DNA of 21,054 nt. Source: Bacteroidales bacterium (GTDB lineage: Bacteria > Bacteroidota > Bacteroidia > Bacteroidales > Bacteroidaceae). The number at the start of each line of letters is the position of its first letter. Position 1 is the first letter of the stretch. Both the position numbers and the translations under genes were made by a program. Positions 3,850 to 21,054 of this stretch are shown piece by piece. The notes under the pieces were generated by a model. The model searched no databases and was not told the origin of the DNA. It saw nothing but the letters and a program-made list of their open reading frames with translations. The DNA lies in assembly GCA_030531335.1 (NCBI GenBank), contig JAUNNV010000029.1, forward strand, positions 1 to 21,054, in the 5' to 3' direction.

Positions 3850-3856
3850 GACAAAT

Positions 3857-3945: not shown

Positions 3946-4518
3946 TTATATGGTGGATACTTTCACGGTGGATTCGTCGATGACAGCCTCTATGCGTACC
4001 TTGCGGCCTGTAGGAATATCGACACCGTCCGAAACGGCTGTGAGCTCATGGATGGAACCATGGACAGACACTTGTATCTGGCCTTTTCCCTGTGGTGGTA
4101 TGTGCAGATAGACATCGGCCACCAAGCCCACACAATCGGCCAGCGACCAAGCACCGTTGCGTTCGAGTTTGCGTGTCTGACGGAAAATGAATACGAACAA
4201 TGCCACAAACAAGGAGCCTGTGACCACCGACAAGAAACCCGCGAATAGATGGCTGCCGACCAAGGGGTAAAAGCAGATGCCTCCCCATCCGATGCCCATG
4301 AGAAGGGCGACGACATTCTTCACGCTGAACAGGTTGAGGCCACCCCCCATGTCGAGGGTGTTGTCAACGTCGAAGTCGGCATCGGTGTCGGTCGCATCGA
4401 TGCCAATGAAGGTTAGGATGGATTGGACGACAAACACGATGGTGGAAATGCCGGCAATCCACCAATAAAAACGGAGCATTGGGTCGAGCGATGCGTACCA
4501 GATAGACAATTCATTCAT
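3946..4518 (-). CDS. NfeD-like membrane protein (YqiJ/YuaF-like, C-terminal OB-fold), flotillin partner
   Basis: The ORF 3946..4584 is trimmed to MNELSIWY... at 4518. It has hydrophobic TM helices (WWIAGISTIVFVVQSILTF; LLMGIGWGGICFYPLVG; FLSVVTGSLFVALFVFIF). A C-terminal beta-rich region GKGQIQVSVHGSIHELTAVSDGVDIPTGRKVRIEAVIDESTVKV is typical of short NfeD. It lies immediately upstream of the flotillin gene. Confidence 0.7.
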   Translation of the reverse strand: MNELSIWYASLDPMLRFYWWIAGISTIVFVVQSILTFIGIDATDTDADFDVDNTLDMGGGLNLFSVKNVVALLMGIGWGGICFYPLVGSHLFAGFLSVVTGSLFVALFVFIFRQTRKLERNGAWSLADCVGLVADVYLHIPPQGKGQIQVSVHGSIHELTAVSDGVDIPTGRKVRIEAVIDESTVKVSTI

Positions 4519-4549
4519 GTTTTGATGTGTTTTCGTTGTTTTACGTTGG

Positions 4550-4557
4550 CAAATATA
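4550..4557 (-). promoter_or_regulatory. Candidate -7 promoter box (TATATTTG) for the nfeD-flotillin operon
   Basis: The minus-strand sequence ccc-TATATTTG-ccaacg lies about 32 nt upstream of the ATG at 4518. A TTTG lies about 20 nt further upstream at a -33-like position. Confidence 0.35.
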
Positions 4558-4591
4558 GGGACAAATAGATGAATTGCAAAACAAATCGGCA

Positions 4592-4669: not shown

Positions 4670-7108
4670 TCACATTTCGACCAAATGGAAGGAGGTCTGT
4701 CCTATCTGGAAGCTTTCGCCATGCCAGAGTTGATATTCCTTTCCAAGCGCGAGATATTTGCCCCCCTTCAAGGTGATGCCATCTACGGCACAGATACGCA
4801 CTACGCCATGCCTTTCATAAACCTTCACCTGCACGGGAGCCACGTCGCTTTGGAGATCCCAAGTGAGTTGCAAGGCGCAATCGACCGACTTGCCGATGGT
4901 GACAACTGTGTGAGGTGATGAGCGTAGCCATTTGTAGAGTGCGATGTCCATATCCTTGACAGATCCCGACACGTGCAGGAAAAAATGCTTGCCGACCGAC
5001 AAGGGTTGAGTCATGCACACCGCTATGGCCACACCATAGCCGATGAACACGAACAATGTCTTCATTAGTTCCGAAACCGTCTGTAGTTCCGCAACCATTT
5101 CCCAAAACAAAGTGCTCGCCACACCCACGACAGCCAGCATCAGCCACTGTCGCCTTTTGAGCCACAGGCGCGAATGATAGGTGGATACACAAGCGATGAC
5201 AAGTGTAGTCAGCACCCAAGGCAGCAGGTCGAACACAAACGAGCCCTCGTAAAGATTGAGCACGACAAGAGTGGCATTGTTGAAAACGAACACAAAAAAC
5301 ACGAGGACACACGCCACGGATGCCCGGACGAACTGCCCAAACAACCTTATGTGCCAACTATACTTGAACAACGTGAAGATTGACAGGGCAAAGGTAAGGA
5401 CGAAACCGATGATGCAACCAAATGTGGGAAGTGTATATAAACGTGAGGAGATGATGTCCAAATCCTGGGGGGAAAATGGGGATACACCTTGCTCGTGAAA
5501 GCCCAACAAGGAAATCGCGATACCATCGAAGAGGTCGAGAAAGAGTGAGCGAAAATGTGGATCCCACACAACCAACCAACCGATCGACGCCGCAGCGATG
5601 GCTACAAGGATCCAGCGTGTGAAGGGGGATGCGTTTTGAGGGTCGAGCAAGTTGGAACGGTTGTAATAATGCGAGCCATCGGGGCAATGCCTTCCATGTT
5701 CGGGGCAATGTTGTCCGTTTTCATTCCAACACTCCAAATGCATCACATGGCTGCATCTTGCCACGATACGGTCGCCCACGGCAAAGGGAGCCTTACAGTA
5801 ATAACATTCGTCGGGGATGGCGATGGCATTGATGCTCATGCGCCCCCCTGTATAGGTGAGGACATACTTGCGCTGAAAGATGACATAGCGTACAAATGGT
5901 TCCAACAGTTGCAAGGCCACGTAGGCGAGCAACAAGACCAGCAAGGCGATAATGATGCCGCGTGAAGCGATGTGGCCGGGCGATTTGTACCCACCGGTAA
6001 CGATTGGCACGTCAATGCTTCCGCACGCATATTCCTTGGAGCACCGGGCAATCAGGCTGTCGTTCCGGTCGTGGAAACTCAATTCCAGCCTGCGCGAACA
6101 GCCGTAGTAGATTTTCCCATCGGGATTCTCGAGCCGGATGGCGAAATCGGGATAGCCAATGCCGAAGGACGCGAAATTGTGTTTGCGCAACTCGACGGCA
6201 CTCAAACCATCGATGACACCCCCCCCCGATTGCTGGCAGAACACCTGCATCATATCCTTGTCGTCGGTGGAACTGTTTCCAGAGTCGGTCGAGGGAGTAC
6301 ACACGTAGCAAATGGCGGGTGCGGAAAACGAGGTGTCGGCGAGTTGTTGTAGGATTTGAGCCTGCACCCAGTAGTGGTCGGGGTCGAGAGGCGTATTGTC
6401 CGTCTCGTCATACACATGGCTGTCCGACAGTATCGCGATGGTGCGGTATGCAGCCGAGTCGAGAGGTGTTCCGGTGCCTTTGCGCAGTTTGCCGAGCATG
6501 AAGTACAAGGCACGATACACGTAAGGAGGAAGTTTGGTGTCGGACACACGATATTTGGAATTGCCGTTTACGTAATTGTCGATTACGTATGGCGAGACCT
6601 CCATGATAGGCGACAACTCGCCTTCGGAAAGGATGAACGAGATAAACACATTCCCATCGCCATACAGACGTATCAGCGAACGGATGTAGTCGCGTTCCTT
6701 TTCAAGCATGTCGGACGATTGGCACAAATCGACCATCAGCAGCAACTTGAGTCCCAACTTGGCATTTTCGGAAGCCACCACGTTGTTGAAGGAAACGACA
6801 TGTGGATGGGTCGATTCTGACCAAGGCACGAACTGGCGTTTCAGCTCCTTCACTGTCATGTGGATCAAGGAGCTGTCCTCAAGTAGGTATTTGTCCAAAT
6901 CATGGGTAATGTCCAACTCCAAGCTTATCTGTTTCACGTCGGTTGAAACGTTCATCGAGCGTATGGCCAAGGCATGGGTCTCGTGTTCGACCGAAGAAGG
7001 ATTCAACTCCGTGAACCGACTGCACGAGGCAAGTAGCAGAATGTATGGTAGCCAGACAGCAAACTGGCTGAAACGACGGAAACAACAAATTACAGACGGT
7101 TTCATCAT
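4670..7108 (-). CDS. Multi-domain membrane protein: lipoprotein signal + periplasmic (possibly vWA-like) domain + TM + cytoplasmic RING-H2 zinc finger + ~6-7 TM helices + C-terminal FHA domain; putative membrane E3-like ligase
   Basis: The N-terminus MMKPSVICCFRRFSQFAVWLPYILLLASCS has a lipobox. TM1 is IIIALLVLLLAYVALQLL. The RING-H2 pattern is C-x2-C-x13-C-x-H-x2-H-x2-C-W-x6-C-x2-H (ECYYCKAPFAVGDRIVARCSHVMHLECWNENGQHCPEH), with a Trp after ligand 6 as in E2-binding RINGs. Hydrophobic helices follow. The C-terminal GKSVDCALQLTWDLQSDVAPVQVKVYERHGVVRICAVDGITLKGGKYLALGKEYQLWHGESFQIGQTSF fits the FHA consensus (G..x..C.L....S..HA.I...........). Domain calls are motif-based only. Confidence 0.75.
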   Translation of the reverse strand: MMKPSVICCFRRFSQFAVWLPYILLLASCSRFTELNPSSVEHETHALAIRSMNVSTDVKQISLELDITHDLDKYLLEDSSLIHMTVKELKRQFVPWSESTHPHVVSFNNVVASENAKLGLKLLLMVDLCQSSDMLEKERDYIRSLIRLYGDGNVFISFILSEGELSPIMEVSPYVIDNYVNGNSKYRVSDTKLPPYVYRALYFMLGKLRKGTGTPLDSAAYRTIAILSDSHVYDETDNTPLDPDHYWVQAQILQQLADTSFSAPAICYVCTPSTDSGNSSTDDKDMMQVFCQQSGGGVIDGLSAVELRKHNFASFGIGYPDFAIRLENPDGKIYYGCSRRLELSFHDRNDSLIARCSKEYACGSIDVPIVTGGYKSPGHIASRGIIIALLVLLLAYVALQLLEPFVRYVIFQRKYVLTYTGGRMSINAIAIPDECYYCKAPFAVGDRIVARCSHVMHLECWNENGQHCPEHGRHCPDGSHYYNRSNLLDPQNASPFTRWILVAIAAASIGWLVVWDPHFRSLFLDLFDGIAISLLGFHEQGVSPFSPQDLDIISSRLYTLPTFGCIIGFVLTFALSIFTLFKYSWHIRLFGQFVRASVACVLVFFVFVFNNATLVVLNLYEGSFVFDLLPWVLTTLVIACVSTYHSRLWLKRRQWLMLAVVGVASTLFWEMVAELQTVSELMKTLFVFIGYGVAIAVCMTQPLSVGKHFFLHVSGSVKDMDIALYKWLRSSPHTVVTIGKSVDCALQLTWDLQSDVAPVQVKVYERHGVVRICAVDGITLKGGKYLALGKEYQLWHGESFQIGQTSFHLVEM
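6219..6227. repeat. 9-nt homopolymeric C run (G9 on the coding strand) inside the RING-FHA gene
   Basis: Plus gacaCCCCCCCCCgat, coding TCG GGG GGG GGT (SGGG) within QSGGGVIDGLS. Confidence 0.9.
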
Positions 7109-7110: not shown

Positions 7111-8076
7111 TCAGATGGTGGGATATTCGTTATCGTTAAATTGTGTCATGGACTTGTACTGCTTCGCCGCTTTCTTGGCGGCCTTCAGAGCGGCATATTT
7201 GCTCTTCATCATTGAAACAAACATCAGGATGATGGCTACGGCAGCCAAACTCATCAAGGAATCCTTCAGATGTTGCATCAGAGGCACATACTTCGCCTGT
7301 TGCACCTTGTCGGATTGCGCCTTTATCTCGGCGAACAACTGGCTGAGGCTGTCCATACGATTCTTTAGCGAAGGCACCAGCAATGCGGCTTGGGTGGCCT
7401 GTTGAAATGTTTGCTGCAATTCGGCAAAGGCGATTTGTTCCTTGGCTTGCAGCTGTTGCAGCAGAGGAGCCGTCTTGGCGGTCAGCGACAGCCTCTGGGA
7501 TTCCGACAGATATTGACTGTACTGATGCCGTTTCGATTCCAGCAGTTTTTCGGCCCGTGTAATGTCCTCCATCGCCTGCAGTCGGGCTTTTTGGGCTGCA
7601 ATCGAGTCCGACACGACTTGGAAGGTCACCTGAAAAGCCGTGAACTTGTCCATCAGAATCTCGTTTTCCACAATGTCTTGTTGTCGTACTTGCGTATAGA
7701 TATTCCATTGTACATTCACATTCTGCAACATCCGATCCAGTCCTTTTAATTCTGTCATCTTGGCCTGCGAAATACTTTTCCCGATATTGAGCAGTGTGGA
7801 TATGTATGCGTCCATCTCGCCCATCGTGGCGTTGGATTGTCCGCTTGGATGCGATGTCGTGGGTAAGTCTGAATAGACATCGAACTTTGTGGGCGTAGCC
7901 CATACAGACATGGTAGCCGATATGGTCACAAGCAGGATGGTGCAGAATGAGTAAACAACTTTTGTCACAATTGATTTCCTGTTATTGGCTTCGCCCATAA
8001 CAGACTGCGTCTCGGCATAACCAAGGTAGGCTTGCCTCTGCTCTTGGCTTGCGCTGTTATTCAAATTCACTGACAT
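7111..8076 (-). CDS. Bitopic/two-TM coiled-coil membrane protein, function unknown
   Basis: The ORF 7111..8232 is trimmed to the first Met lying near the stop of the upstream gene (MSVNLNN... at 8076). The start is uncertain; alternatives are 8232, 8115 and 7998 (MGEANNRK...). It has TM segments VVYSFCTILLVTISATMSVWA and LMSLAAVAIILMFVSMM flanking a long Gln/Leu-rich coiled coil. It lies 2 nt upstream of the RING-FHA gene. Confidence 0.55.
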   Translation of the reverse strand: MSVNLNNSASQEQRQAYLGYAETQSVMGEANNRKSIVTKVVYSFCTILLVTISATMSVWATPTKFDVYSDLPTTSHPSGQSNATMGEMDAYISTLLNIGKSISQAKMTELKGLDRMLQNVNVQWNIYTQVRQQDIVENEILMDKFTAFQVTFQVVSDSIAAQKARLQAMEDITRAEKLLESKRHQYSQYLSESQRLSLTAKTAPLLQQLQAKEQIAFAELQQTFQQATQAALLVPSLKNRMDSLSQLFAEIKAQSDKVQQAKYVPLMQHLKDSLMSLAAVAIILMFVSMMKSKYAALKAAKKAAKQYKSMTQFNDNEYPTI

Positions 8077-9277
8077 GTTTGAAGAAATATTTCGCTGCTG
8101 TGTCGAAAATGCCATACGCACGACGCTGTTCTTCGTTGTATATGCCTTTTTCCTCAACACCTTGCTTGGTGACGTTGATGATGTCGCGACCCATAAAGTA
8201 GATATCGCGTCGTTCCAACTCATTTTTCGCAACCAGATTTTGCGCCACCAGTTTGTCTAATTGACGTGCCGCTCGGACAAGTGCTTCGGGCGAAATACCT
8301 GTGCCGTAGAGCACGCTGCCCTCTTCCGTCAGCTCTACCGGGACGGCGCATTTCAGGGATTCAATCGAATCCACGTAGTTGTTGTAACTGTCGCGCACCA
8401 TATTCACATCGGCACATGACGATTTCGTCTCTATCGGTTGGAATTTCGACAACAGAAATTCTTGATGTTGCTTGAACACGCCGACCTCCTCGGCGGATTC
8501 CACCTTGCCTGAAGGACATATCTGATGGAGCTTCCGATACGCTTTCCGGATATCCATCAACTTGGCTTTCATGACAGCCAACGCCTCTTGTTGACCATGG
8601 CAAGGATTGCGGGCCAATGCCACCCGACAAGTAAGGTCAAGATCGTGATCGAATACTATCTCGTATTCCCGTCCTTTCTGAGTGTCTTTCAACACATCCA
8701 CCACCATGATGTTGCGAATGCGCAACGTCACATCGGATGCCTCCGGATTCACCTTGAACCGTTGTGTCAAAATTTTCTGACTTAACTTCGGCAATGTCTG
8801 AGGCGAGTCTGTCGCACTTGTCGGCAGATAGGTAGCAGGACAGGCAATGGTGAGCGAGGCGGAGTTCGGTTCCACCCAGGCATTGATAAGGTGATGGCGG
8901 CGTTTCTTCCGATACGACTTATACACCGATTCTCTTAGGTAATATTTCGAATTAGGCTCTACCAGCACCTTATATTGCAATTTCTCGGCATGAAGCCGAC
9001 GTTTGCCAAGAAACGGATGGGTAAACACATCGTTGTAGGATACGTCCTGACGGAAAGCCATGAAATCGCGATTGCCAGACAACGTGAGAACCAACTCGTC
9101 GGCAGCCTCTTCGAAAGCAAGCGTCAGGTCAAGCTCCAAGCCTTTGTCGTCGAAGGCAATCTGTATTTTCTCCTGATAAGGCGTGTCGGCATCCACACGC
9201 ACGTTTTTGGTCTCTTGAGCCTGTGCCAGGGCAGCACAGCAGGCCATGAAAAGGCAGAAGAATTTAGTCTTGGTCAT
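8057..9277 (-). CDS. Secreted hypothetical protein (406 aa) with N-terminal signal peptide
   Basis: ATG at 9277; MTKTKFFCLFMACCAALAQAQ-ETKN is a signal peptide. A long ORF with mixed composition and several Cys. It overlaps the E2 gene end by 14 nt. No recognisable catalytic motif. Confidence 0.65.
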   Translation of the reverse strand: MTKTKFFCLFMACCAALAQAQETKNVRVDADTPYQEKIQIAFDDKGLELDLTLAFEEAADELVLTLSGNRDFMAFRQDVSYNDVFTHPFLGKRRLHAEKLQYKVLVEPNSKYYLRESVYKSYRKKRRHHLINAWVEPNSASLTIACPATYLPTSATDSPQTLPKLSQKILTQRFKVNPEASDVTLRIRNIMVVDVLKDTQKGREYEIVFDHDLDLTCRVALARNPCHGQQEALAVMKAKLMDIRKAYRKLHQICPSGKVESAEEVGVFKQHQEFLLSKFQPIETKSSCADVNMVRDSYNNYVDSIESLKCAVPVELTEEGSVLYGTGISPEALVRAARQLDKLVAQNLVAKNELERRDIYFMGRDIINVTKQGVEEKGIYNEEQRRAYGIFDTAAKYFFKHVSEFE

Positions 9278-9860
9278 AATATATCCAATTGTTTGGTTCT
9301 CCTTGTGTCCGAACCCAATAGGCTACTTTCAAATCCTCTGGGTAAGGAGGTTCGGGCAGTGCATGGTAGATTTCGTAGCGCAGATACAGTGCGATGCGTT
9401 CCACAGCCCATGCCAAACTGCTGTGTGTGTTGGGCATGTTCACACACACACGTCCTGCCAGGCTACCATGATACCCTATGTTGGGATGCCAAGGCAACGT
9501 GTCGCCCACAAAACGGAAGCAAGGCATAGCATCTACCTGAGGATAACGTTCGGGAAGTTTTATCTCCATCCGAAACTCATGGGCGAAAATAGGACTGCCA
9601 TCCACATTCACCCCACAGATACATTTTATAAAATAGTCTATCGAGTAGGCCGTAGGGATTCCTTCAGGGGTGGCATCGACCACTTGCATGGCGATGTCGT
9701 TGCGTTGTTTCACAAAGGCGGCAAGCTGCTCCCACTCGTAAAACAGTCGGTGTGCGCGTCCTCGAAGAGGCTTGTTCTGAAACCAGCTTGTCCCGGGCGA
9801 AGTCAAGGAAAGGGGTTTACCCTGGGAATGGATCGGGGATGAGGAAAATTGTGTCGCCAT
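9264..9860 (-). CDS. Ubiquitin-conjugating enzyme (E2/UBC-fold) homologue
   Basis: The UBC core motif is ...FRMEIKLPERYPQVDAMPCFRFVGDTLPWHPNIGYHGSLAGRVCVNM... (YP.xP, HPNI, G...C). It can be laid alongside UbcH5 ...[34 protein letters not shown]. An N-terminal RLFYEWEQL helix is present and LPEPPYPEDL lies downstream. The ATG at 9860 overlaps the Ubl gene end by 44 nt; an alternative TTG start lies at 9806. Confidence 0.8.
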   Translation of the reverse strand: MATQFSSSPIHSQGKPLSLTSPGTSWFQNKPLRGRAHRLFYEWEQLAAFVKQRNDIAMQVVDATPEGIPTAYSIDYFIKCICGVNVDGSPIFAHEFRMEIKLPERYPQVDAMPCFRFVGDTLPWHPNIGYHGSLAGRVCVNMPNTHSSLAWAVERIALYLRYEIYHALPEPPYPEDLKVAYWVRTQGEPNNWIYYDQD

Positions 9861-10140
9861 TGTTCACATTATAGTCGGCAAGCGTCTGTTCGGTTTTCCC
9901 AATGCGCGGCCGCATCACGCGAATCTCGTGCACGACCTCGTCTTCTTTCCCAAAGAAATAATCGAGGGGTGCTCCTGTGCTGTCGATGGAGGGAAAGTCG
10001 AATATCAGTCGGCCATCTTGTCCGGTTGAATGTTTCAGGTTGTTCATCAATGCGCCCAATGGGAGTTGCGGATTGATGACGCGGAACTTCACCTTTTTGT
10101 CCTTATAGACAATGTTAATGAAAAAATCGTCTTGGTGCAT
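9817..10140 (-). CDS. Ubiquitin-like (beta-grasp) protein ending in a C-terminal Gly
   Basis: The C-terminal 22 residues TLADYNVNNGDTIFLIPDPFPG match ubiquitin 55-76 [22 protein letters not shown] position by position (T,L,D,Y,N,I/V,T,I/L,L,I/V, terminal G). The stop codon follows the Gly directly. RLIF and a KVKFRVI beta-hairpin lie upstream. The ATG at 10140 is 23 nt after the tssF stop. Confidence 0.75.
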   Translation of the reverse strand: MHQDDFFINIVYKDKKVKFRVINPQLPLGALMNNLKHSTGQDGRLIFDFPSIDSTGAPLDYFFGKEDEVVHEIRVMRPRIGKTEQTLADYNVNNGDTIFLIPDPFPG

Positions 10141-10163: not shown

Positions 10164-11927
10164 TTATTTGCTACGCGAATCTAAGTCAATCTTCACTTGG
10201 ATGGGGCAGATGCCCGTAGTACGCACCTCCATGAGCCTTTGTAGGTGATTTTCGATACTGGCAAAATGTTTTCCCAACGCACGTTTCACATACATGTTGT
10301 CGTGGAGCACGATACCTACCACGATGCAATAAGCATGATAGCTACCTCGTGTAAGCACCTGCTTGTGCGTACGTATGGAGGCTATCATTTCCTGCTCTAC
10401 ATTGAACCGTGTGGCCAATTCCTGATAACAAAACAACTTTAGATCTGTTTCGGTGACAAGCCGGTCGTCGGTGGCTATGAAGTAGCGTGTAGCCGTCCTC
10501 ATGGCTTCCTCGGACAACAATTCGTCGTATCCTGGTTGAGGAATCGTCACTTGATGGGATTTGGACTGGTCGAAACCTGGGGGTACCACAAACACGGCAT
10601 CGGAGGTGAGCACACTGTTCACTACAGCTCCGTTAGTGGTCAGATAGCCGACATTGAGTGAAGTGTTTTCTGGGCTTTGTCGAAGGGTGTCGCCCCAACT
10701 ATCCTTCGAGCGTTCGTGAGGAATGCCGGCAAACATCAGATAGACACCCTCGTGCGAGGTTCGCAAATGTGGATGCGTGTGTTGCGACAACTCCTTCAGG
10801 TTGTTGCGCAGGTTGTGCATCACCATGTCGGTATATTCGTTGCCCATGGCCTGAAACGCATAATAGTCGGATGTGTATTTGTCGATGAGGCCCGACAACA
10901 ACCTGTGCAGCCTCCCCTCGTTGAACCTGTCGGCACCTATGCGCCGCACCTGTAGCCGGACATTGCCTAATAGTTGGTCCTCGTCGGGACGTAGCAGATG
11001 AAGAAACTGCCCATTGTTCTTGTCATCGATACGCTGTATAGGCGCATCGGCCGAGAGGGTGGCTGTTTTCACTTCGGCGTTCACTATCAAGGCGATGTTG
11101 ACAAGCAAATCGCTCTCTTTGAAAGAAAAGTTGTCGTCGATGCCGTCGAACTCGAAGGTGAGTTCCATGCGATCAATGGCATCGATATCGTCCATTTCAT
11201 CTACGACATACAGCAATAGGTTTTGTCGGGCATACAAATCCAGGGCGCAGAAGTTGCGATAGGCAGCCATGCCTTGGAACACGTTGCCCGAACGTACGGC
11301 TTGCGACTGATTGTAGAGCAACGTATCAAGCGAGAAACAGTCGGCACACGGCAGATTCGCAAAGTCCCACGGTGCGATGAGGGGTATTTCCCTATCGCTC
11401 ATGCTTACACGCAGGCCATGGAAATCCTGGTTCTTCAAGGCAAACGCAAGGCCTTTTAGGCTTTTCACCTTGTGTGGAAAGAACATATTGACTTGCCATC
11501 TCCTTCCATCCACGCGCCTCAGCCCATCCATCTCCACCTGTATGGCTTTGGTCTTGAGCAAGGGGATGAAGTTGAAGTTGTTGTTGTCGGTTCCTTTTAA
11601 GATGAATCTCATGGACGAATCGACATCCATTTCCGTCACATTGGGCATCAGAGCCAATTGCACGACGGCTGTGGCTGGAATGGCCTTGACTGGTTCGTTC
11701 ACGCAAAGCATGTTCTGGAACTCGTCGAGCAGCTCCGTCCGCAATGCCTCCAACTCGTTGTCCGACTCGTTGAATTGATAGGCCAGTGCCGTAATCAGGA
11801 ACTTGAACAGCGGATCCGAATCCAGTCCCTCAAGACTGTCGCTTCTGTTGTTGCGGTGCCAAATATCCACACATTGGGCCATCAGCTCCTTGGCGCGTTG
11901 TCTTATTTCAAATATGTTCTGTCTCAT
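10164..11927 (-). CDS. tssF: TssF-like baseplate protein (phage gp6 / baseplate-J family)
   Basis: 587 aa, directly after the gp25-like gene. The N-terminal block DPLFKFLITALAYQFNESDNELEALRTELLDEFQNMLCVNEPVKAIPATAVVQL resembles the TssF signature DP.VERLLEGFAFL...L.DEFPE...LL..L.P...P.PS..IVQF. The size and gene order (tssE-tssF) fit. Confidence 0.75.
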   Translation of the reverse strand: MRQNIFEIRQRAKELMAQCVDIWHRNNRSDSLEGLDSDPLFKFLITALAYQFNESDNELEALRTELLDEFQNMLCVNEPVKAIPATAVVQLALMPNVTEMDVDSSMRFILKGTDNNNFNFIPLLKTKAIQVEMDGLRRVDGRRWQVNMFFPHKVKSLKGLAFALKNQDFHGLRVSMSDREIPLIAPWDFANLPCADCFSLDTLLYNQSQAVRSGNVFQGMAAYRNFCALDLYARQNLLLYVVDEMDDIDAIDRMELTFEFDGIDDNFSFKESDLLVNIALIVNAEVKTATLSADAPIQRIDDKNNGQFLHLLRPDEDQLLGNVRLQVRRIGADRFNEGRLHRLLSGLIDKYTSDYYAFQAMGNEYTDMVMHNLRNNLKELSQHTHPHLRTSHEGVYLMFAGIPHERSKDSWGDTLRQSPENTSLNVGYLTTNGAVVNSVLTSDAVFVVPPGFDQSKSHQVTIPQPGYDELLSEEAMRTATRYFIATDDRLVTETDLKLFCYQELATRFNVEQEMIASIRTHKQVLTRGSYHAYCIVVGIVLHDNMYVKRALGKHFASIENHLQRLMEVRTTGICPIQVKIDLDSRSK

Positions 11928-11943: not shown

Positions 11944-12387
11944 TTAGTTCCATACGTTTATGATGTTGCTGTACTGAAAAGGCTCGTTTGTATCGCCCAA
12001 CAGGCCGGTTATTTCCACCAATACTTGCCGTTGGTCGCGGCGGTAGTTCATTACTACCTTTGGTGAGAGCAACCGAGGCTCATACACCTCGATGCTATGC
12101 TTCAGGTCGGAGGCGAATGTCTGTAGGTTCTTCGAGGAGCCGGAAACTTTCTTCTTGTATATTGGATTCCGGCTGTCACGAGAATCGAACACCGTCCCCT
12201 CGTTCTCGTCGAAAATCTCAAATCTCAACGTGGAGAACACAAAGCCATAATCCGGATCGATGGGCAAAGAGCCCAACGGTGTGTCCATCAGGAGCTGTAG
12301 CGAATCCCTGACCGATTGCTCCAACCCGTTCGACTGATGGAGGAACCTGCCCGACACTACCTGTAAAGGACTTTGCAAGTATTTCAT
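11944..12387 (-). CDS. tssE: TssE / gp25-like baseplate wedge protein (GPW_gp25 family)
   Basis: 147 aa. SVRDSLQLLMDTPLGSLPIDPDYGF and IEVYEPRLLSPKV match the gp25/TssE motifs (..NL..LL.T..G.....P.fG / I..fEPRL). The ATG at 12387 overlaps the upstream stop in an ATGA. Confidence 0.85.
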   Translation of the reverse strand: MKYLQSPLQVVSGRFLHQSNGLEQSVRDSLQLLMDTPLGSLPIDPDYGFVFSTLRFEIFDENEGTVFDSRDSRNPIYKKKVSGSSKNLQTFASDLKHSIEVYEPRLLSPKVVMNYRRDQRQVLVEITGLLGDTNEPFQYSNIINVWN

Positions 12388-13589
12388 ATCAATGGTGTGA
12401 AAACATCTTCCGGCTGATGTTCCTCCTTGGCCACGAGACCAGACAGCGCATTGAACAATGCAGGGTAAAGTTCCTGATATAGCCTATCGTGCAATGCTTC
12501 GTACAGCACTTCTTTCAGCTTCGGACGAAGTCGATCGTCCACGTATGCCTGCAGTTTTTCCGTGATTGTCGCGGTCAGTTCAGGCATCACCACGTCGCGA
12601 AGTTCCATGCGGATTTTTTCGTCTATTTGCTGCTTCAATTGTTCAAGAAGTTGTGTGTACAACTCTCTCTTCAGCGCCTCCACATCGATGTGGCGACTTT
12701 CCGTCACCACATCGTCCATGGACAGTAGCAAGGCGTTCATGAATTCTTTGAGCCACGACAGGTAGGCTCGGATATGGTTTGTGTGAGGCACGCGGCGAGG
12801 GTCGGCGGCCAGCTCGCGCGTGGGTTCTTGTCCTGAGCCCTGCCGAAGGACTTGTTGGCCTCCCAATCCCAATCGGATGTGGTAATCCAAGGCTTGATCC
12901 GTTTCGCGCAACAGTCGCACAAGCTCCACTACCGACTCCTTGCCGGTGAGGCTCTGTAGCCGGAAACACAGATGTAACAAGGTGCGTTTGCCGTCACCAT
13001 CCTCCATGTTGCGGTGGGTAGCCAGCTTCGTGAGTAGTTCCACATACATGCTTACGAACTCTCCGAAAGCCTTGTGCGAGGCTGTCGAGATCATGGGAGG
13101 CACATACGAGGCATCCACATTGAGCAGGTCGCCCTCTACGTAAAGCCTCTTCAGCGGCAGTACGTCCAAACTTTCGTCGGCACGTTCCAACTCGTCCAGC
13201 GAATGCAGCGAGAGCTCGTAAACGGGAGCCTTGTAGGGTATGCCATCGCGTTCGAAACAATGTGTTTTCCCATTGGCAGGGCCGACGCACACAAAACATT
13301 CCGGCAACGGTTGCGACACGATGGTCAGCGTGAGGTCGTCATCTACGCTGAGCACGGCCCCCGATGGCAACAATGCCGTAAGCCTCAGATTGTTCATCTC
13401 GAAGGTGTTGCCCACAAAAGCGCCCTCAACGTGTAGTGGGTACATGGGGAGAATGCCCATGCCGACACTCCCTATGGCGGCGCGGAGCAACAGTTGCTGA
13501 CGGTTGTCGAAGTCGTGTTGCTGATGGACGAAGACCCCAGAGGTGAGCTCCATCCCTGGTTGCCAATGTATATTTGCGTTGTAATACAT
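12384..13589 (-). CDS. tssK: TssK-like baseplate protein (N-terminal shoulder domain) with C-terminal coiled-coil region
   Basis: The N-terminus NIHWQPGMELTSGVFVHQQHDF...LLRAAIGSVGMGIL resembles the TssK start (W.EGM.L.PQHFQQ.D...LAR.G...WG). 401 aa, 4-nt ATGA overlap with tssE. The C-terminal half is helical/coiled-coil, so this is an atypical TssK and only moderately confident. Confidence 0.55.
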   Translation of the reverse strand: MYYNANIHWQPGMELTSGVFVHQQHDFDNRQQLLLRAAIGSVGMGILPMYPLHVEGAFVGNTFEMNNLRLTALLPSGAVLSVDDDLTLTIVSQPLPECFVCVGPANGKTHCFERDGIPYKAPVYELSLHSLDELERADESLDVLPLKRLYVEGDLLNVDASYVPPMISTASHKAFGEFVSMYVELLTKLATHRNMEDGDGKRTLLHLCFRLQSLTGKESVVELVRLLRETDQALDYHIRLGLGGQQVLRQGSGQEPTRELAADPRRVPHTNHIRAYLSWLKEFMNALLLSMDDVVTESRHIDVEALKRELYTQLLEQLKQQIDEKIRMELRDVVMPELTATITEKLQAYVDDRLRPKLKEVLYEALHDRLYQELYPALFNALSGLVAKEEHQPEDVFTPLI

Positions 13590-13631: not shown

Positions 13632-14432
13632 TCATTCATAGTCCTTAATTACGATATTGTAGTTCATGATTTTCCCTTCCTCCGACTTGCCCTTGGCTCC
13701 TGCCTCAAACAGGCAGTCGAAAGGAATGAACCGGCTGTGCACAAATGCAAGCATACGTTCCCATCGTTTGGTAAGGTCGGCGTATGCGGTGGCTGTCAGA
13801 CCATCCACACAAATGTCGTAATGCACTTTTTGCATCCAAAAGCGTGTGTTGTCGCATTCGTTGTACGCCGACAAACGCATCCGCACCGGATAACCCGTGA
13901 CAACGCTCAGCAATGATTTTACAAACGACAAGTTGCCACGGAGTTTGGCCACGTATGGCAGCAACACCGCCACCTTGCGCACATACTCGTCCGTTTCCGC
14001 CTCCAAGTCGAACTTGTAGGATGTTTTTAACACGAATTCGAGCTTGCGGGCCAGCAAGTCGGCCACGATGTGTTCCCGCTTCAGCTTCTGCCTGAACATG
14101 AACGAGTCGATGGGTAGGAAAGTTTCTGACAGTGTCCTTATCCGCTCATGCAACTGTTGGGCAAGCTGTTTGAAATCGCCTTTTCGTTTCCTTCCGAAAC
14201 GGTCGGATGCCTTCAGCTCATCCTCCGATCCTAAAAACAAGGGAGGCAGATAGTGTAGGAAGCCGTTGCGCGAAAGCGATACGATTGCTTCCTTCGGATT
14301 GATGGACAACACATCCGGCGCATAGTTCCTGCTGAAGGAACCTTTCTGATAGGCCAGCCACTTGTCTTCCAGCTCTGGATACAAATAGTTGAGCAACAGT
14401 TCCGCACTTATCTCGTGCCTGTCGGTTGTCAT
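13632..14432 (-). CDS. Hypothetical cytoplasmic protein (266 aa), translationally coupled downstream of E1
   Basis: The ATG at 14432 overlaps the E1 stop (ctATGAcaa). There is no signal peptide or TM segment and no motif I can name. It lies 42 nt upstream of the tssK-like gene. Confidence 0.6.
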   Translation of the reverse strand: MTTDRHEISAELLLNYLYPELEDKWLAYQKGSFSRNYAPDVLSINPKEAIVSLSRNGFLHYLPPLFLGSEDELKASDRFGRKRKGDFKQLAQQLHERIRTLSETFLPIDSFMFRQKLKREHIVADLLARKLEFVLKTSYKFDLEAETDEYVRKVAVLLPYVAKLRGNLSFVKSLLSVVTGYPVRMRLSAYNECDNTRFWMQKVHYDICVDGLTATAYADLTKRWERMLAFVHSRFIPFDCLFEAGAKGKSEEGKIMNYNIVIKDYE

Positions 14433-15478
14433 AGTTCCACGTACCTATATCCTGTTGGGGTCTTTATTCTCACAATGTCGTGTGCTGGAATGCCCAACGC
14501 AGCCAATGGCAGCGTGGGGTAGGGGAACGAGGTGTCTATCTCCGCATATTCGTGTTGGCATAGTTTCGCCATCGGTATGGTCGAAAGTCGTGGATGTTGC
14601 TTCACGAAGCCAGCCATTCGGCGTGCCGGCAGCATTGCTTCCGTCTGTTCGCCCGTCTCTCGATTCTCTACATAATCCACAAAGGCATCGTTGAGCACCA
14701 CAGTGCCAATCCGCAGGAGTGATTTCAGCGAGTGTTCCCTGACTACTTCAATAGGCTCCCATTGCTCGTGCAGCACGCAATCGTCATCCCACGCCTCGAA
14801 CACGGCTTTCCGCACACTCAGGTTTTCGCCATCGTAGTAGCACATGTTTCGTTCCACTGGCACGCCTGCAATCACTTTCAATGCTTCGGCTGCTTGCCAG
14901 GCTCCTATCACGCTGGCCGCCACTGATGTGGTAGGGGCATGGCCAGCCGCTTCCATTTGCCGTATCACGCCCGAACAAGGCATCCGTCGGCGCAACTCGT
15001 CCAGTCCTTCCGTCCCGAGGCCACAAGCGTAGCAGTTCACGCCGGGCACAAACACCCGCATCGTCCCCTCCATGCCGATGATGCCACCGTCAATCCATGT
15101 CTTTCCTGCCCTCGTACAGAGGCGCTGGATGCAATAGCGGGTCCACCGGCTATCGACGCATCCCATCACCACGTTCATCTGCCGTATCAATGCCAATCCC
15201 ACATCGTATGCCACATCGCCATGGATGGCCTGCACATCGACGGTGGCGTTGATGCCTCTCAGCGCGTCCTTCACCACATCCACTTTGCGCCGACCCACAT
15301 CGACTGGCCTGAACAGGATGCTTCGTGTGAGGTTGCCCTGTTCCACCACATCGAAATCGACCACCACCAGATGCCCCACTCCAAGCAGTACGAGGTTTTT
15401 GAGCACCTCGTTGCCCAGGGCCCCACATCCCACCACCATGATGCGGGCATCGCGCAGCTTGTCTTCTTCGATGTTCAT
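14429..15478 (-). CDS. E1-like ThiF/MoeB-family adenylyltransferase (ubiquitin-activating-enzyme-like)
   Basis: The ORF 14429..15778 is trimmed to MNIEEDKLRDARIMVVGCGALGNEVLKNLVLLGVGHLVVVDFDVVEQGNLTR (Rossmann GxGxxG plus an acidic D..D motif typical of E1/ThiF). Downstream are CYAC (CxxC) and MPCSGV (candidate catalytic Cys in a PxCT-like context). The 100 codons upstream of this Met are Gly/Arg/His/Cys-rich junk. The ATG at 15478 overlaps the upstream stop (ggATGAac). Confidence 0.8.
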   Translation of the reverse strand: MNIEEDKLRDARIMVVGCGALGNEVLKNLVLLGVGHLVVVDFDVVEQGNLTRSILFRPVDVGRRKVDVVKDALRGINATVDVQAIHGDVAYDVGLALIRQMNVVMGCVDSRWTRYCIQRLCTRAGKTWIDGGIIGMEGTMRVFVPGVNCYACGLGTEGLDELRRRMPCSGVIRQMEAAGHAPTTSVAASVIGAWQAAEALKVIAGVPVERNMCYYDGENLSVRKAVFEAWDDDCVLHEQWEPIEVVREHSLKSLLRIGTVVLNDAFVDYVENRETGEQTEAMLPARRMAGFVKQHPRLSTIPMAKLCQHEYAEIDTSFPYPTLPLAALGIPAHDIVRIKTPTGYRYVEL

Positions 15479-16200
15479 CCGATTGGTAGTTTGTCCTGAA
15501 TGCTGTTGAAGACCTTGTCGAGCTTCATGCTCTGTCCGCCTTTTGTGATGTCCGTTGTGGATGTATCCTTCGCATTGCCGGCCACATGGCGGTTGTAGGC
15601 TTCCTCGATTTCCTTTTTCTTGTCGTTGTAGAGTCGTTCCATCATTTCGGAATACGTGTCGAAAATTTCCTGCAACTTGTCCTTGGCCTCTTTTACCGCC
15701 TCTTCCGAGCTTCCTACAGTGCGACTGGCTACCGCAGACGCAGCCCTCGTCTTTTCTGCCTCGATTTTCGTCTTGCATTCCGAGTAGAGTGCATCGGTGG
15801 CCGTGTCGAGTAAATCCTTGCGTTCCTTATTTACATCGGGCATCGTGAGCAGTAGGTATTTGGCATCGATGCCATTCTCATCGTCTGCCCCAGGAGCAGT
15901 TTCGAGCGTCACCTTGAATTCCGGATGCACTTCCGTGATGCCTTTGTAAATGCAGGAGAAGTACGCCGAATCCTTTGGATATACATTCATCATGTGTTTT
16001 TCGTTCTCATCCTCGTGCACTAAAATGTCGGCCACGTCCTCAATGCGTTTGTCCATGCCACCATACACCATCTCCACTCCCAGCAACGAAGAGGGATCGG
16101 CCTTGACACACACGTTGCAGAACAGGTACGACATGCTTGCCACATGTCCCAGCATCCTGTTCTGTGTTTCTATCAATGCGACTTCTACCGATCGTTTCAT
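15475..16200 (-). CDS. Hypothetical protein (241 aa; N-terminal globular part + acidic coiled-coil C-terminus), translationally coupled upstream of E1
   Basis: ATG at 16200; the stop overlaps the E1 ATG. No JAB/MPN HxH motif was found. The C-terminal region is Lys/Glu-rich (EAEKTRAASAV...EAVKEAKDKLQEIFDTYSEMMERLYNDKKKEIEEAY). Confidence 0.6.
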   Translation of the reverse strand: MKRSVEVALIETQNRMLGHVASMSYLFCNVCVKADPSSLLGVEMVYGGMDKRIEDVADILVHEDENEKHMMNVYPKDSAYFSCIYKGITEVHPEFKVTLETAPGADDENGIDAKYLLLTMPDVNKERKDLLDTATDALYSECKTKIEAEKTRAASAVASRTVGSSEEAVKEAKDKLQEIFDTYSEMMERLYNDKKKEIEEAYNRHVAGNAKDTSTTDITKGGQSMKLDKVFNSIQDKLPIG

Positions 16201-19783: not shown

Positions 19784-21054
19784 TCAGGATTTCTTTAGGT
19801 AATCCTTTAAGCCATTAAGCCCCGCATTCAGCACAGGCTCCCAGCCGTTTGATGCCAGGTTGAGCTGGTAGGTGTGCTGTGCACTGTTCGAAACCAATAT
19901 GTTGCCATTGCTCGCCACGTCCCAGAGGACACGCGGACCGGCACAGCCATTCCTGTTAAAGAGTTTCTGGCCACTGTCGAACACTTTCACGTTGTCGTCC
20001 TCGACAGTCACTGCACCGCTGGTGATGACGGGTAGGAGTTCGGCACCGAGTGCCGTCGCGAAGCTGTTCAATACGCCACCCTCCTTATCCTTGGGATCGT
20101 TCTTAAACTCTATCCCATTGATGAGGTCATTCCATTGTTCATCATTGGCAACGTCACCTATTATCGGATGTGTTATTTGATCGTTGTATATATCCAATAT
20201 GGCGACAAACACCGTTCTTTTCATTCCTTTTTTGTCGGAAAGTATGGAAGAACCAAGGATTTGCTCCCGACCTTCTTTCGAATTAAATGTTGCTACAAAC
20301 AGTGGCCAATTATTGCTCCCTTGTAATTTTTTCTCTCTTTCGAGCTGCTGATTGATTTTTTTCAACAATTCATCTTTAGTATGTTCGTTGATGTAGTCAA
20401 GATGGCGCTTTAAAGTATCGAAATTATTTTTAAATTTTCTCAAACTTTCCGTGATTTCAATATTGTTTTCTTTACCATCTGCTGGTTGTAGCTGTGGACA
20501 TAGGTTGTCTGTGATATAATTTAACAGTTCTTCAGATGATTTTGTTTTCAGTGTTTGTATTGTGGACTGGCTTGTGTCATTTAGCTTGTTTTCTTCTGAA
20601 TTAAAAAAAGACAGATGAGTGTGAAATTCATTGGATAGTTTTCTGATTGTTTCTTCTGAAAATTGGATCTCTTCATAGAATGTGTTTATCACACGAGTAG
20701 CCTCTATCAACACGCCCTCTATCGTAGAACCCAAGTCTTTTGCCGCTTTTTCATCCTTATTCATGTGGTTCTTCCAACCTTTGGAAGCGTAGTTCGACAT
20801 CAGGGATGTGGGAATCATTGCCTTGCCTTTTCCTGCCGTCATGGTGACATTGCGGTTCGACTTGATGGACAGAGTCCCCTCTACGGGTCGCATCAGCACT
20901 TCCCACAGGCTACGCAGGAACGACAGATCGGAGAGCTTGGTGGGGTCGAATGTCAGGAAATTCTTCGCCTGTTGTGTGGCTATTTGAGCTGCAATACCTC
21001 CCGCGATGGATCCGAGAATAACGCCAACAATCTCACCGCTACTTGGATCATTCG
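19784..21054 (-). CDS. Large hypothetical protein, 5'-truncated by window end; glycine-zipper TM-like segment; candidate effector/toxin
   Basis: The frame of ORF 19784..20899 stays open to the window edge (…NDPSSGEIVGVILGSIAGGIAAQIATQQAKNFLTFDPTKLSDLSFLRSLWEVLMRPVEG…). GVILGSIAGGIAAQIA is a GxxxG-type zipper. The central coding region, about 20300-20700, is conspicuously AT-rich. Confidence 0.65.
   Translation of the reverse strand, partial: NDPSSGEIVGVILGSIAGGIAAQIATQQAKNFLTFDPTKLSDLSFLRSLWEVLMRPVEGTLSIKSNRNVTMTAGKGKAMIPTSLMSNYASKGWKNHMNKDEKAAKDLGSTIEGVLIEATRVINTFYEEIQFSEETIRKLSNEFHTHLSFFNSEENKLNDTSQSTIQTLKTKSSEELLNYITDNLCPQLQPADGKENNIEITESLRKFKNNFDTLKRHLDYINEHTKDELLKKINQQLEREKKLQGSNNWPLFVATFNSKEGREQILGSSILSDKKGMKRTVFVAILDIYNDQITHPIIGDVANDEQWNDLINGIEFKNDPKDKEGGVLNSFATALGAELLPVITSGAVTVEDDNVKVFDSGQKLFNRNGCAGPRVLWDVASNGNILVSNSAQHTYQLNLASNGWEPVLNAGLNGLKDYLKKS

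Follow-up and report, generated by a model that had tools for sequence, protein, structure and literature searches.

An envelope-anchored RING/FHA protein encoded with its own Ubl, E2 and E1 at the end of a T6SS gene cluster in Bacteroidales: a candidate E3-type component

The question raised by this locus is what a membrane protein with a RING-H2 and an FHA-like domain does at the end of a bacterial gene cluster. The protein is encoded by an 812-aa ORF with an ATG start (7108..4670) on contig JAUNNV010000029.1 of a Bacteroidales bacterium; the whole stretch analysed, 21,054 nucleotides, is called the window here, and all features given below by nucleotide position lie on its minus strand. The gene starts 2 nt past the stop codon of the upstream gene, g373. 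A terminator-like hairpin with a 14-bp stem and a T-run is found about 40 nt 3' of its stop codon (4627-4597), i.e. at the end of the cluster, so the original prediction, made from the sequence of the window, was right in calling this the final gene before the terminator.

The ORF (4670..7108) comprises a lipoprotein signal, a periplasmic β-sandwich/vWA/β-sandwich region, TM1, the RING-H2, TM2-7 and the FHA-like domain. Searches of Pfam, NCBIfam and PADLOC with the window protein gave a sub-threshold RING and no FHA; as direct matches were scarce, the domains were set by family profiles and structure. Residue counts refer to 120 homologues with 17-67% identity, and the previously described domain order was borne out. 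Within the protein, conservation peaks in the RING (0.64) and the FHA domain (0.53) and is lowest in the periplasmic parts (0.27-0.41).

The cytoplasmic RING-H2 (aa 433-482; 5663..5812) has the pattern C435-x2-C438-x13-C452-x-H454-x2-H457-x2-C460-x7-C468-x6-C475, i.e. eight ligands in the order C-C-C-H-H-C-C-C with one deviation, x6 instead of x2 in the last pair. The ligands are kept, in order, in 120, 116, 120, 120, 120, 120, 120 and 117 of the 120 homologues, which is, judged by the alignment, far beyond chance. A G478-S-H-Y-Y-N extension is also conserved, C468-P469 occurs in 101/120 sequences, and the positions that contact an E2 in RINGs are retained (a hydrophobic residue at C1+2, the Pro after C7, and a Trp). 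The Trp, W461, was originally taken for the E2-contact residue; it is invariant in the 120 homologues, yet it sits at C6+1 and not at the canonical C6+4, and HMMER pairs it with the canonical Trp only via an assumed 3-residue deletion, so that this assignment does not stand as made.

The window protein misses the Pfam zf-RING_2 cutoff (19.7 bits vs 27.3, E 1e-3). RING families of Pfam match 31 of 60 family members at E<0.01 (best 1.2e-4), and Prok-RING_1 and Prok-RING_4 match the family only weakly (best E 7e-6 and 1.4e-3). When the family RING profile was compared with the PDB, 32 of the 35 matches were RING proteins and the three others, all weak, were LIM domains. The matches include RNF126 (the best, E 1e-3), ZNRF1, HRD1, Pirh2, Arkadia, gp78, RNF24 and RNF13, of which HRD1 and gp78 are polytopic ligases. 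The proposed cytoplasmic RING-H2 is thus upheld by the (near-)invariant ligands and by profile matches that are nearly all RING-H2 E3s.

The C-terminal domain (aa 705-812; 4673..4996) has the 11-stranded β-sandwich fold of FHA domains, and the FHA-like part of the AF2 model is of moderate confidence (pLDDT 45-81). Pfam FHA does not match the window protein and matches 30 of 60 homologues (best E 2e-9). The zf-RING and FHA HMM check suggested with the original prediction thus gave a sub-threshold RING and no FHA for the window protein, and matches to either domain in about half of the 60 homologues. Moreover, the T3SS family Yop-YscD_cpl (the YscD cytoplasmic domain) matches 8/60 members, and YscD is among the fold matches. 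The phosphothreonine site is degenerate: out of five signature residues only the Gly (G739, invariant) is kept. The arginine of the 'GR' motif is replaced by Lys in 65 of the 120 sequences (Arg in 38; K740 in the window), the pThr-contacting Ser by Ala in 77 (Ser in 12; A757) and the His by Gln in 61 (His in 37; Q760). Across the family the loop of the Asn is shorter and has D, E, G or N in its place. The near-invariant residues of the domain are family-specific, namely K718, K726-W727 in an inserted helix, and W750-D751. No kinase or phosphatase is conserved among the genes of the cluster, i.e. there is no counterpart of the PpkA/PppA pathway that accompanies Fha1/TagH. With the signature mostly replaced and no such enzyme conserved in the cluster, the domain can no longer be described as phosphothreonine-binding; its residues make a docking module more likely than a phospho-reader. 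Control by threonine phosphorylation was set aside on the grounds of the degenerate FHA domain and the lack of a kinase in the cluster.

One TM helix lies ahead of the RING and six behind it. TM1 (aa 384-402; 5903..5959) runs out-to-in and is followed by a K/R-rich juxtamembrane stretch (family net charge +3.8). The six others (5012..5623; aa 496-699) are at aa 496-514, 563-581, 598-616, 623-641, 655-673 and 681-699; the periplasmic loop at aa 515-562 is acidic and variable. Across the 120 sequences the net charge of the loops is +2.8 to +3.8 on the cytoplasmic and -0.4 to -1.9 on the periplasmic side. Because of this charge bias the RING, which follows TM1, and the FHA-fold domain, which follows TM7, are both predicted to be cytoplasmic, side by side, a placement that had been fixed beforehand as a test of the proposal. 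The helix with two Asp residues (aa 517-535) is poorly conserved and net acidic and is therefore periplasmic, so the earlier reasoning that it does not span the membrane and that an even number of helices follows the RING was correct. An odd number, with the FHA domain in the periplasm, was rejected as disfavoured by the charge bias.

The N-terminal signal peptide (aa 1-29; 7022..7108) has a hydrophobic h-region followed by L-A-S-C29, which by sequence pattern fits the lipobox consensus [LVI][ASTVI][GAS]C. The family motif is [LFIV][TVAS][SAG]C; the Cys is present in 94 of the 120 homologues, the others having mostly gaps, and is predicted to be lipid-modified. The region that follows (aa 30-375; 5984..7021) is predicted to face the periplasm and consists of a β-sandwich (~45-109), a Rossmann-like vWA fold (~111-320, nt 6149-6778) and a second β-sandwich (~322-363). 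Its MIDAS is partly degenerate in the window protein (D127-x-C129-x-S131...S172...D229). D127 is found in 119/120 homologues and D229 in 93/120, position 129 (Cys in the window) is Thr in 65 and Ser in 41, position 131 (Ser in the window) is Pro in 53 and Ser in 35, and position 172 is Thr or Ser. Both the lipobox and the periplasmic vWA-like domain that had been proposed are therefore present.

The same operon encodes an E1, an E2 with catalytic Cys and a Ubl with C-terminal Gly. The Ubl (107 aa; 9817..10140) has a β-grasp fold and ends in PDPFPG; the Gly is free, i.e. the last residue, in 77/77 orthologues, and the Ubl is the most conserved protein of the module (77% pairwise identity). Its model matched, among others, the bacterial Ubl of 8tyx/8tyz, and the fold search did not discriminate between EccD/YukD/TssN-like and ubiquitin/SUMO-like proteins (TMq 0.45-0.60 for both). 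The E2 (9264..9860) is UBC-like; its HPN motif and catalytic Cys do not vary among 78 orthologues, and it matches UBE2K and UBE2N with E 1e-5. The E1 (14429..15778) has a ThiF-type adenylation domain and a C-terminal extension, and its true start is probably downstream of the listed ATG. In the PDB it scores best against UBA7 and UBA1 (E 1e-26 to 1e-24), with MoeB and ThiF ranking lower, and it is much nearer to UBA1/UBA7 than to Cap2 (E 1e-26 vs 2e-6). No deconjugating peptidase, i.e. neither a DUB nor a JAB, was recognised among the genes of the cluster, so a reversible tagging cycle is not evident; nor does the cluster hold a sulfurtransferase. PADLOC gave generic, domain-level matches for the E1 and E2, none for the RING/FHA protein or the Ubl, and no system-level match, i.e. 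no Bil, Bub or CBASS-Cap2.

The original prediction had touched on T6SS regulation as a hint; the whole locus turns out to be a T6SS cluster, beyond what could be known at that stage. It holds the core components together, in the order ClpV, TssB/C, Hcp (several), VgrG, PAAR-like protein, E1, TssG-like protein, TssK, TssE, TssF, Ubl, E2, two envelope proteins and the RING/FHA protein. In the window we find the C-terminal part of VgrG (19784..21054, extending past the contig end), a conserved 597-aa protein following it (16639-18432), a DUF4280 PAAR-like protein (16240-16629), an RRF-domain protein (15475-16200), and TssG-like (13632..14432; by position and a family common to distant T6SS clusters), TssK-like (12384..13589; a weak match), TssE/gp25-like (11944..12387) and TssF-like (10164..11927; an orthologue is above the Pfam T6SS_TssF cutoff) proteins. 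TssE and TssK were called by NCBIfam, TssF by its orthologue, and TssB and TssG only from their size and position; in the related loci L084-L086 there are Pfam matches to TssC, TssD, Phage_base_V and Clp/AAA. A prophage or an extracellular contractile injection system was ruled out by ClpV, TssB/C and Hcp. The two envelope proteins are g406 (8057..9277), secreted or periplasmic, with a signal peptide and of no known family, and g373 (7111..8232), whose orthologues of ~290 aa have a signal peptide, a periplasmic coiled coil and a C-terminal TM anchor; its true start is probably internal to the listed ORF. No homologues of TssJLM or TssNQOPR were detected in the cluster, though such genes could sit elsewhere in the genome, and the RING/FHA protein, g406 and g373 have no Pfam or NCBIfam match to TssJ/L/M or TssN/O/P/Q/R.

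The RING/FHA gene occurs in at least 104 Bacteroidales species (GTDB). Related loci were searched with a 15-sequence alignment of RING/FHA homologues, and the order E1-TssG-like-TssK-TssE-TssF-Ubl-E2-g406-g373-RING/FHA was found in ~67-82 of 83 loci, the others being cut by contig ends. The Ubl, E2 and E1 genes are syntenic with the RING/FHA gene in essentially all loci with enough flank, which supports the envelope-to-Ubl-ligation link suggested earlier. In locus L106 the Ubl-E2-g373-RING/FHA block, with g406 not identified, moves as a unit. Nothing is conserved downstream of the RING/FHA gene or upstream of ClpV. Among the carriers are named strains with records that bear no MAG label, e.g. 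Parabacteroides distasonis An897, Xylanibacter ruminicola D31d and Prevotella sp. ne3005.

Several known systems resemble parts of this arrangement. HRD1/synoviolin, gp78/AMFR and RNF13/RNF24 are likewise multi-pass membrane proteins with a cytosolic RING-H2 for a UBC-type E2. Compared with the HRD1/gp78 type, there is no likeness outside the RING, the window protein adds a lipoprotein anchor, a periplasmic vWA domain and a C-terminal FHA domain, its RING has C7-x6-C8, and its setting is a secretion machine and not ER quality control. RNF8 and CHFR, to which the protein had been likened, are soluble and have an N-terminal pThr-binding FHA followed by a C-terminal RING, whereas here the RING precedes the FHA, six TM helices lie between them and the pThr residues are lost. 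Only the domain pair is common, with no specific sequence kinship; judged by domain order and sequence, the resemblance is convergence of domain pairing and not membership.

Burroughs, Iyer and Aravind reportedly predicted prokaryotic E1-E2-RING-Ubl operons in 2011 (the Pfam Prok-RING families). These and the Caldiarchaeum-type system have the same full E1, HPN E2, RING and C-terminal-Gly Ubl in one operon. As a rule such operons carry a JAB deubiquitinase, are mobile and encode soluble systems (PMC3417536), and prokaryotic RINGs typically have a longer insert between the last ligand pair (PMC11354881). Here, in contrast, there is no JAB, the RING is part of an envelope protein with seven TM helices, and T6SS baseplate genes stand among those of the cascade. 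The type II CBASS Cap2, Bil and Bub systems share the bacterial E1/E2/Ubl chemistry; they differ in including a DUB and no RING E3, in being soluble and in acting in phage defence or stress.

FHA domains turn up repeatedly as accessory domains of T6SSs. The T6SS membrane complexes, TssJLM with Fha1/TagH (Proteobacteria) and TssNQOPR (Bacteroidota), likewise span the envelope and are encoded beside baseplate genes; as here, they combine a lipoprotein element and periplasmic domains with a bundle of TM helices and a domain on the cytoplasmic side placed to dock TssK. However, no sequence likeness to any Tss membrane protein is detectable and the window cluster has no threonine-phosphorylation genes. 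In the T3SS, SctD (YscD/PrgH/EscD) has a cytoplasmic FHA fold without phosphopeptide-binding residues that serves for docking. This inner-membrane protein resembles the window protein in its non-phospho-binding FHA fold; it differs in its single TM helix, its N-terminal FHA, the lack of a RING and a vWA domain, and the secretion system. In T6SSiii a cytoplasmic Ubl-like domain of TssN docks TssK (PMC10781749), whereas the Ubl of the window is not fused to another protein but made separately, in conjugatable form, and is accompanied by a dedicated E1 and E2.

We somewhat favour the reading that the RING/FHA protein is an inner-membrane, E3-type component of a Bacteroidales T6SS variant, an envelope anchor that would direct Ubl conjugation near the baseplate. 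Seven TM helices would hold it in the inner membrane, where, with the co-transcribed g406 (periplasmic) and g373 (periplasmic coiled coil, TM anchor), it may form the T6SS envelope anchor; we infer this membrane-complex role from the gene position and from the fact that TssJLM and TssNQOPR were not detected in the cluster. The FHA-fold domain would dock a cytoplasmic partner, most likely TssK or the baseplate, or act as a substrate receptor, for which the FHA-like domain of SctD/YscD and the cytoplasmic domain of TssN may serve as precedents. The RING would recruit the cognate E2~Ubl thioester and promote Ubl transfer to a lysine of the docked partner or of the anchor itself; E3 activity, zinc binding, Ubl conjugation and the substrate are what we infer from sequence. 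Covalent attachment of the Ubl at the membrane would thereby be tied to assembly, firing or recycling of the machine. A further proposal, tentative and in our estimate less likely than not, is that this widespread T6SS variant needs ubiquitination of the eukaryotic kind: a RING E3 forming part of the anchor would put a dedicated Ubl on the baseplate or the anchor, licensing docking, firing or ClpV-driven recycling, and the free Ubl may replace the fused Ubl-like domain of TssN.

The protein could instead be a purely structural anchor whose Cys/His cluster lacks E3 activity and serves as a scaffold stabilised by zinc or for oligomerisation; the E1, E2 and Ubl would then act alone, in E2-direct transfer or in a role other than conjugation such as sulfur transfer. 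Many treble-clef fingers are not E3s, and the sub-cutoff Pfam scores, the non-canonical C7-x6-C8 spacing and the displaced Trp would fit such a role. Likewise, the characterised bacterial Ubl systems (Cap2, Bil and Bub) work without a RING E3 (PMC11601603). We nevertheless consider it rather unlikely, since the gene is strictly co-inherited with the Ubl and E2 in a block that moves as a unit, no part of the protein is better conserved than the RING, which has retained its E2-contact positions (hydrophobic C1+2, C7-Pro, Trp), and the significant PDB profile matches are all active RING-H2 E3s; the HPN/Cys site of the E2 is complete as well, and a sulfurtransferase is missing from the cluster.

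A phospho-switch as in T6SS-i, i.e. an FHA domain that reads pThr made by a PpkA-like kinase and gates the RING or T6SS assembly (cf. Fha1/TagH and RNF8), is improbable. The conserved residues do cluster in the apical loops, where canonical FHA domains hold their pThr ligand, and some homologues keep the GR arginine (38/120) or the Ser (12/120), but the changes of Ser to Ala (77/120) and His to Gln (61/120), the shortened Asn loop, the K740, A757 and Q760 of the window protein, its missing Pfam FHA match and the lack of any kinase or phosphatase gene conserved in the cluster all argue against it. We give hardly any weight to a Bil/Bub-like anti-phage defence set beside phage-tail-like genes, in which the Ubl would be conjugated to phage proteins. 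Bil systems attach their Ubl to phage tail proteins (PMC11601603), and the PADLOC E1 and E2 models match at domain level; yet no PADLOC system is matched, the RING/FHA protein is unmatched, there is no DUB, and the neighbours are a full T6SS (ClpV, TssB/C, Hcp, VgrG, TssE/F/K) and not a prophage. The gene order is fixed across more than 100 species, unlike that of mobile defence islands, and a defence island was ruled out on this ground.

In the literature searched, nothing relevant linked T6SS to Ubl/E1/RING or to Prok-RING families, and in silico mention in Aravind-lab work (2009 E1, 2011 RING, 2012 Ub review) is possible. If the further proposal of a ubiquitination-dependent T6SS holds, no earlier report in the literature searched has a bacterial secretion system controlled by covalent Ubl tagging, or a bacterial RING E3 embedded in the membrane whose cellular role is defined. 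The result suggests how a T6SS may be anchored without recognisable TssJLM/TssNQOPR genes, and hints at a mode of regulation described for no secretion system, in which covalent Ubl tagging takes the place of threonine phosphorylation. As the carriers include named strains, genetic, imaging and conjugate-proteomics testing is probably direct. For ubiquitin evolution it is relevant that eukaryotic enzymes give the E1 and E2 their highest scores and that the RING-H2 in the membrane has a parallel in HRD1 and other ER ligases. The bacterial Ubl cascades described earlier are sporadic mobile defence operons, whereas here a complete E1/UBC-E2 (HPN)/RING-H2/Ubl cascade is a fixed part of a machine of housekeeping type, in bacteria that are abundant in the gut and rumen. 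In other words, a RING gene that ends a T6SS cluster with its own Ubl, E1 and E2 suggests that a secretion machine of gut Bacteroidales may use eukaryote-style protein tagging.

The reading frame proposed at 4670-7108 in the original prediction is confirmed as a single 812-aa ORF on the minus strand, with an ATG start. The identical product is already on record, annotated as hypothetical, from a Bacteroidales MAG whose contig coincides with the whole window. Translation starts 2 nt beyond the stop of the upstream gene, and a 14-bp hairpin with a T-run is found at 4627-4597(-), about 40 nt past the stop of the RING/FHA gene. A word-indexed search returned only 15 relatives of the protein; an exhaustive profile search gave 433 representatives at E<1e-3, of which 207 reach E<1e-30, and almost all of them are full-length proteins (780-830 aa). 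The variability of the family was evaluated on an alignment of 120 full-length members that share 17-67% identity with the window protein.

The AlphaFold2 model of the protein, calculated from 15 homologues (mean pLDDT 76.8, pTM 0.61), contains a β-sandwich (aa 45-109), an α/β domain (aa 111-320), a second β-sandwich (aa 322-363), a long helix (aa 377-415), a small mixed region (aa 416-483), seven helices and a C-terminal β-domain interrupted by a single helix (aa 720-730). Hydropathy indicates a signal-like segment (aa 12-30), TM1 (aa 384-402) and six further transmembrane segments (496-514, 563-581, 598-616, 623-641, 655-673 and 681-699). The helix at 517-535, which carries two Asp residues and had been considered weak, is a direct continuation of TM2 in the model; conservation is lowest in the region where it falls (major-residue frequency 0.19), and the loop to which it belongs carries a net acidic charge. 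Over the 120 homologues the net charge is +3.8 after TM1, +3.1 in the TM3-4 loop and +2.8 in the TM5-6 loop, as against -1.9, -0.4 and -0.8 in the TM2-3, TM4-5 and TM6-7 loops, respectively. This bias, together with the N-terminal export signal, leads to a predicted topology in which the N-terminal domain is periplasmic, the RING is cytoplasmic, and six TM helices are followed by a cytoplasmic C-terminal domain. The earlier argument that the number of helices after the RING must be even is therefore right, as a prediction. The protein is also predicted to be lipidated, the lipobox being L-A-S-C29 within the family pattern [LFIV][TVAS][SAG]C.

The RING is the most conserved region of the protein (0.64). 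Its ligands are C435 and C438, C452 and H454, H457 and C460, and C468 and C475, which are conserved, in that order, in 120, 116, 120, 120, 120, 120, 120 and 117 of the 120 sequences; W461 is invariant in the same alignment, and P469, after the seventh ligand, is found in 101/120. The window protein scores 19.7 bits with Pfam zf-RING_2, i.e. below the cutoff of 27.3, and matches Prok-RING_1 at E 0.023. Among 60 members of the family, zf-RING_2 matches 31 (best 1.2e-4) and Prok-RING_1 matches 18 (best 7e-6). The Prok-RING models reportedly stem from 2011 work on prokaryotic RINGs, and the weakness of these matches suggests that the present family was not among their seeds. A profile of the RING segment gave 35 matches to PDB sequences, all of them RING proteins except three weak LIM domains. 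The RING proteins are nearly all RING-H2 E3 ligases, with RNF126 at 1e-3 and, further, ZNRF1, synoviolin/HRD1, Pirh2, RNF24, Arkadia/RNF165, EL5, gp78/AMFR and RLIM. The finger departs from the canonical RING-H2 in two respects. Six residues rather than two separate the last ligand pair, a longer insert that is typical of prokaryotic RINGs according to a review (PMC11354881), and the Trp is at C6+1 instead of C6+4, HMMER placing it on the canonical Trp by way of a 3-residue deletion. That the protein is a RING E3 of the membrane, coupled to the ligation of a Ubl as originally proposed, is plausible.

The C-terminal β-domain presents a different picture. The family profile aligns to the FHA domains of DgcB and Ki67 and to Rad53 FHA1 (E 0.012-0.5), which allows the canonical phosphothreonine-binding residues to be located in the family. 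Only the Gly of the GR motif is invariant (G739 in the 120 sequences). The Arg of this motif is Lys in 65 and Arg in 38 of the 120, the Ser of SxxH is Ala in 77 and Ser in 12, its His is Gln in 61 and His in 37, and the Asn loop (S-x-N-G) is shortened to E/D-G. Other residues are near-invariant and specific to the family, namely K718, K726-W727 in the inserted helix, C744, and W750-D751 in the β4-β5 loop. The FHA-like domain thus has an apical surface that is conserved and chemically different. The domain probably binds some ligand, and this ligand is probably not a phosphothreonine. The original interpretation is supported in part; neither the phosphothreonine reader nor the likeness to RNF8 that had been proposed is supported.

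The RING/FHA gene closes a T6SS cluster. The order E1 (14429-15778 (-)), g266 (TssG-like, 13632-14432 (-)), the TssK-like 401-aa protein (12384-13589 (-)), TssE/gp25, g587 (TssF-like, 10164-11927 (-)), Ubl (9817-10140 (-)), E2 (9264-9860 (-)), g406 (8057-9277 (-)), g373 (7111-8232 (-)) and RING/FHA was read by tblastn with the window proteins, and was seen in virtually every locus with enough flank. The gp25 protein of the window matches TssE and the 401-aa protein matches TssK weakly; one orthologue of g587 passes the Pfam TssF cutoff, and the g266 family is common to distant T6SS clusters. Walking through homologues of a 597-aa gene led further upstream to ClpV, TssB-size and TssC proteins, 3-4 Hcp, VgrG, the 597-aa protein itself, a DUF4280 (PAAR-like) protein and an RRF-domain protein. 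No gene is conserved upstream of ClpV, nor, in 38 loci, on the downstream side of RING/FHA, and no kinase, phosphatase, JAB/DUB, TssJLM or TssNQOPR homologue was detectable in the cluster. Both genes preceding RING/FHA encode proteins with signal peptides, and g373 also has a coiled coil and a C-terminal TM anchor. On one metagenome contig (L106, 12460-17830) Ubl, E2, a position where g406 was not identified, g373 and RING/FHA directly follow ClpV and precede E1-TssG-TssK-TssE-TssF, i.e. the five-gene block from Ubl to RING/FHA behaves as a single unit in this rearrangement. Architecture, conservation and synteny of the RING/FHA protein, as well as the T6SS identity of the cluster, are regarded as shown.

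When a single genome of each GTDB species was scanned, the RING/FHA gene turned up in 104 species, all of them Bacteroidales (including Prevotella, Xylanibacter, Bacteroides, Parabacteroides, Alistipes and Paludibacteraceae) except two records whose titles name Clostridia and which probably represent mis-binned contigs. Two loci, L040 and L056, carry the Bacteroidales cluster and are filed under Clostridia bins (Subdoligranulum sp. and Acutalibacteraceae); mis-binning of the contigs is the most likely cause, rather than a real transfer.

Within the module, conservation is highest in the Ubl (77% mean pairwise identity), followed by E1 and E2 (58-59%), the baseplate proteins (45-52%) and RING/FHA (33%). 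The Ubl ends in [PA]DP[FI]PG, the Gly being the last residue in 77/77 orthologues, and its predicted fold (pLDDT 86) is a β-grasp whose last strand resembles that of ubiquitin. Trypsin would leave a long C-terminal remnant beyond K82. In E2 the HPN motif and the Cys are invariant, and the protein matches UBE2K and UBE2N at E 1e-5. E1 finds its best PDB matches in UBA7 and UBA1 (E 1e-26 to 1e-24), with MoeB, ThiF and Cap2 ranking below them. On these sequence features the cascade looks functional. As listed, the E2 ORF shares 44 nt with the 3' end of Ubl (9817-9860 (-)), likewise in L084, a related locus, whereas the two genes are a few bases apart in other loci, so either the E2 start is uncertain here or Ubl and E2 are translationally coupled. 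The listed E1 ORF encodes 449 aa, compared with about 350-411 aa in orthologues; about 90 odd, Arg/Gly/Gln-rich N-terminal residues are missing in the latter, and the true start is probably near MNIEEDKL. Past the adenylation domain E1 has a C-terminal extension of about 100 aa that could be a ubiquitin-fold domain.

Several neighbouring genes deserve mention. The conserved 597-aa protein (16639-18432 (-)) is always encoded after VgrG and before the PAAR-like gene; at least 979 homologues are in the database, and the protein belongs to no Pfam family. The label "ATP synthase subunit b", which one source gives to a homologue, probably reflects coiled coils. The RRF-domain protein (15475-16200 (-), Pfam E 4.8e-12), which may be a cargo/effector or an adaptor, adjoins the PAAR-like DUF4280 gene and also occurs in L084 (9307-9960) and L085 (12245-12970); in L013, L039 and L042 extra cassettes of VgrG, 597-aa and RRF-like genes are found past the downstream end of the cluster. 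A gene for a BNR/sialidase-like protein with a signal peptide separates VgrG from the 597-aa gene only in the window (18470-19768 (-)) and its closest relative (L084, 5455-6753), and in no other locus (0 of 83); it may be cargo specific to this lineage, or else an unrelated insertion. The genes that come directly after the cluster, for an NfeD-like membrane protein and an SPFH/Band-7 (flotillin-like) protein (2482-4584 (-), downstream), are not conserved beside it in any other locus and are therefore probably unrelated neighbours. The large ORF at 34-2382 (+), with a helix-hairpin-helix (HHH_3) match and an internal signal-peptide-like start (MKRLIYLLSLGFFALSLQAQ), is unrelated to the T6SS cluster and may encode a ComEA-like or an outer-membrane protein.

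We infer that the RING/FHA protein, g406 and g373 would form the envelope anchor of a T6SS variant. The FHA-like domain would dock a cytoplasmic partner, probably the baseplate, and the RING would recruit E2~Ubl, tagging the docked partner or the anchor itself; tagging might license assembly, trigger firing or permit recycling by ClpV. There are precedents. The docking site of SctD in the T3SS is an FHA fold without phospho-binding residues, and in RNF8 the FHA domain serves the RING as substrate receptor. TssK of T6SSiii is docked by TssN through a ubiquitin-like domain on the cytoplasmic side (PMC10781749).

The bacterial systems of Ubl conjugation characterised so far (CBASS Cap2, Bil and Bub) have no RING and no link to a secretion system (PMC11601603). 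For prokaryotic E1-E2-RING operons, which are predicted, the literature describes mobility and an association with a JAB peptidase (PMC3417536). A T6SS with E1, E2, RING and Ubl was not described in the literature searched. The prokaryotic RING E3 cascade and the T6SS are known kinds of systems, but their combination and the protein architecture appear to be new. The system is of high interest because it is widespread, joins two fields and can probably be studied by experiment in carrier strains such as Parabacteroides distasonis An897, Xylanibacter ruminicola D31d and Prevotella sp. ne3005.
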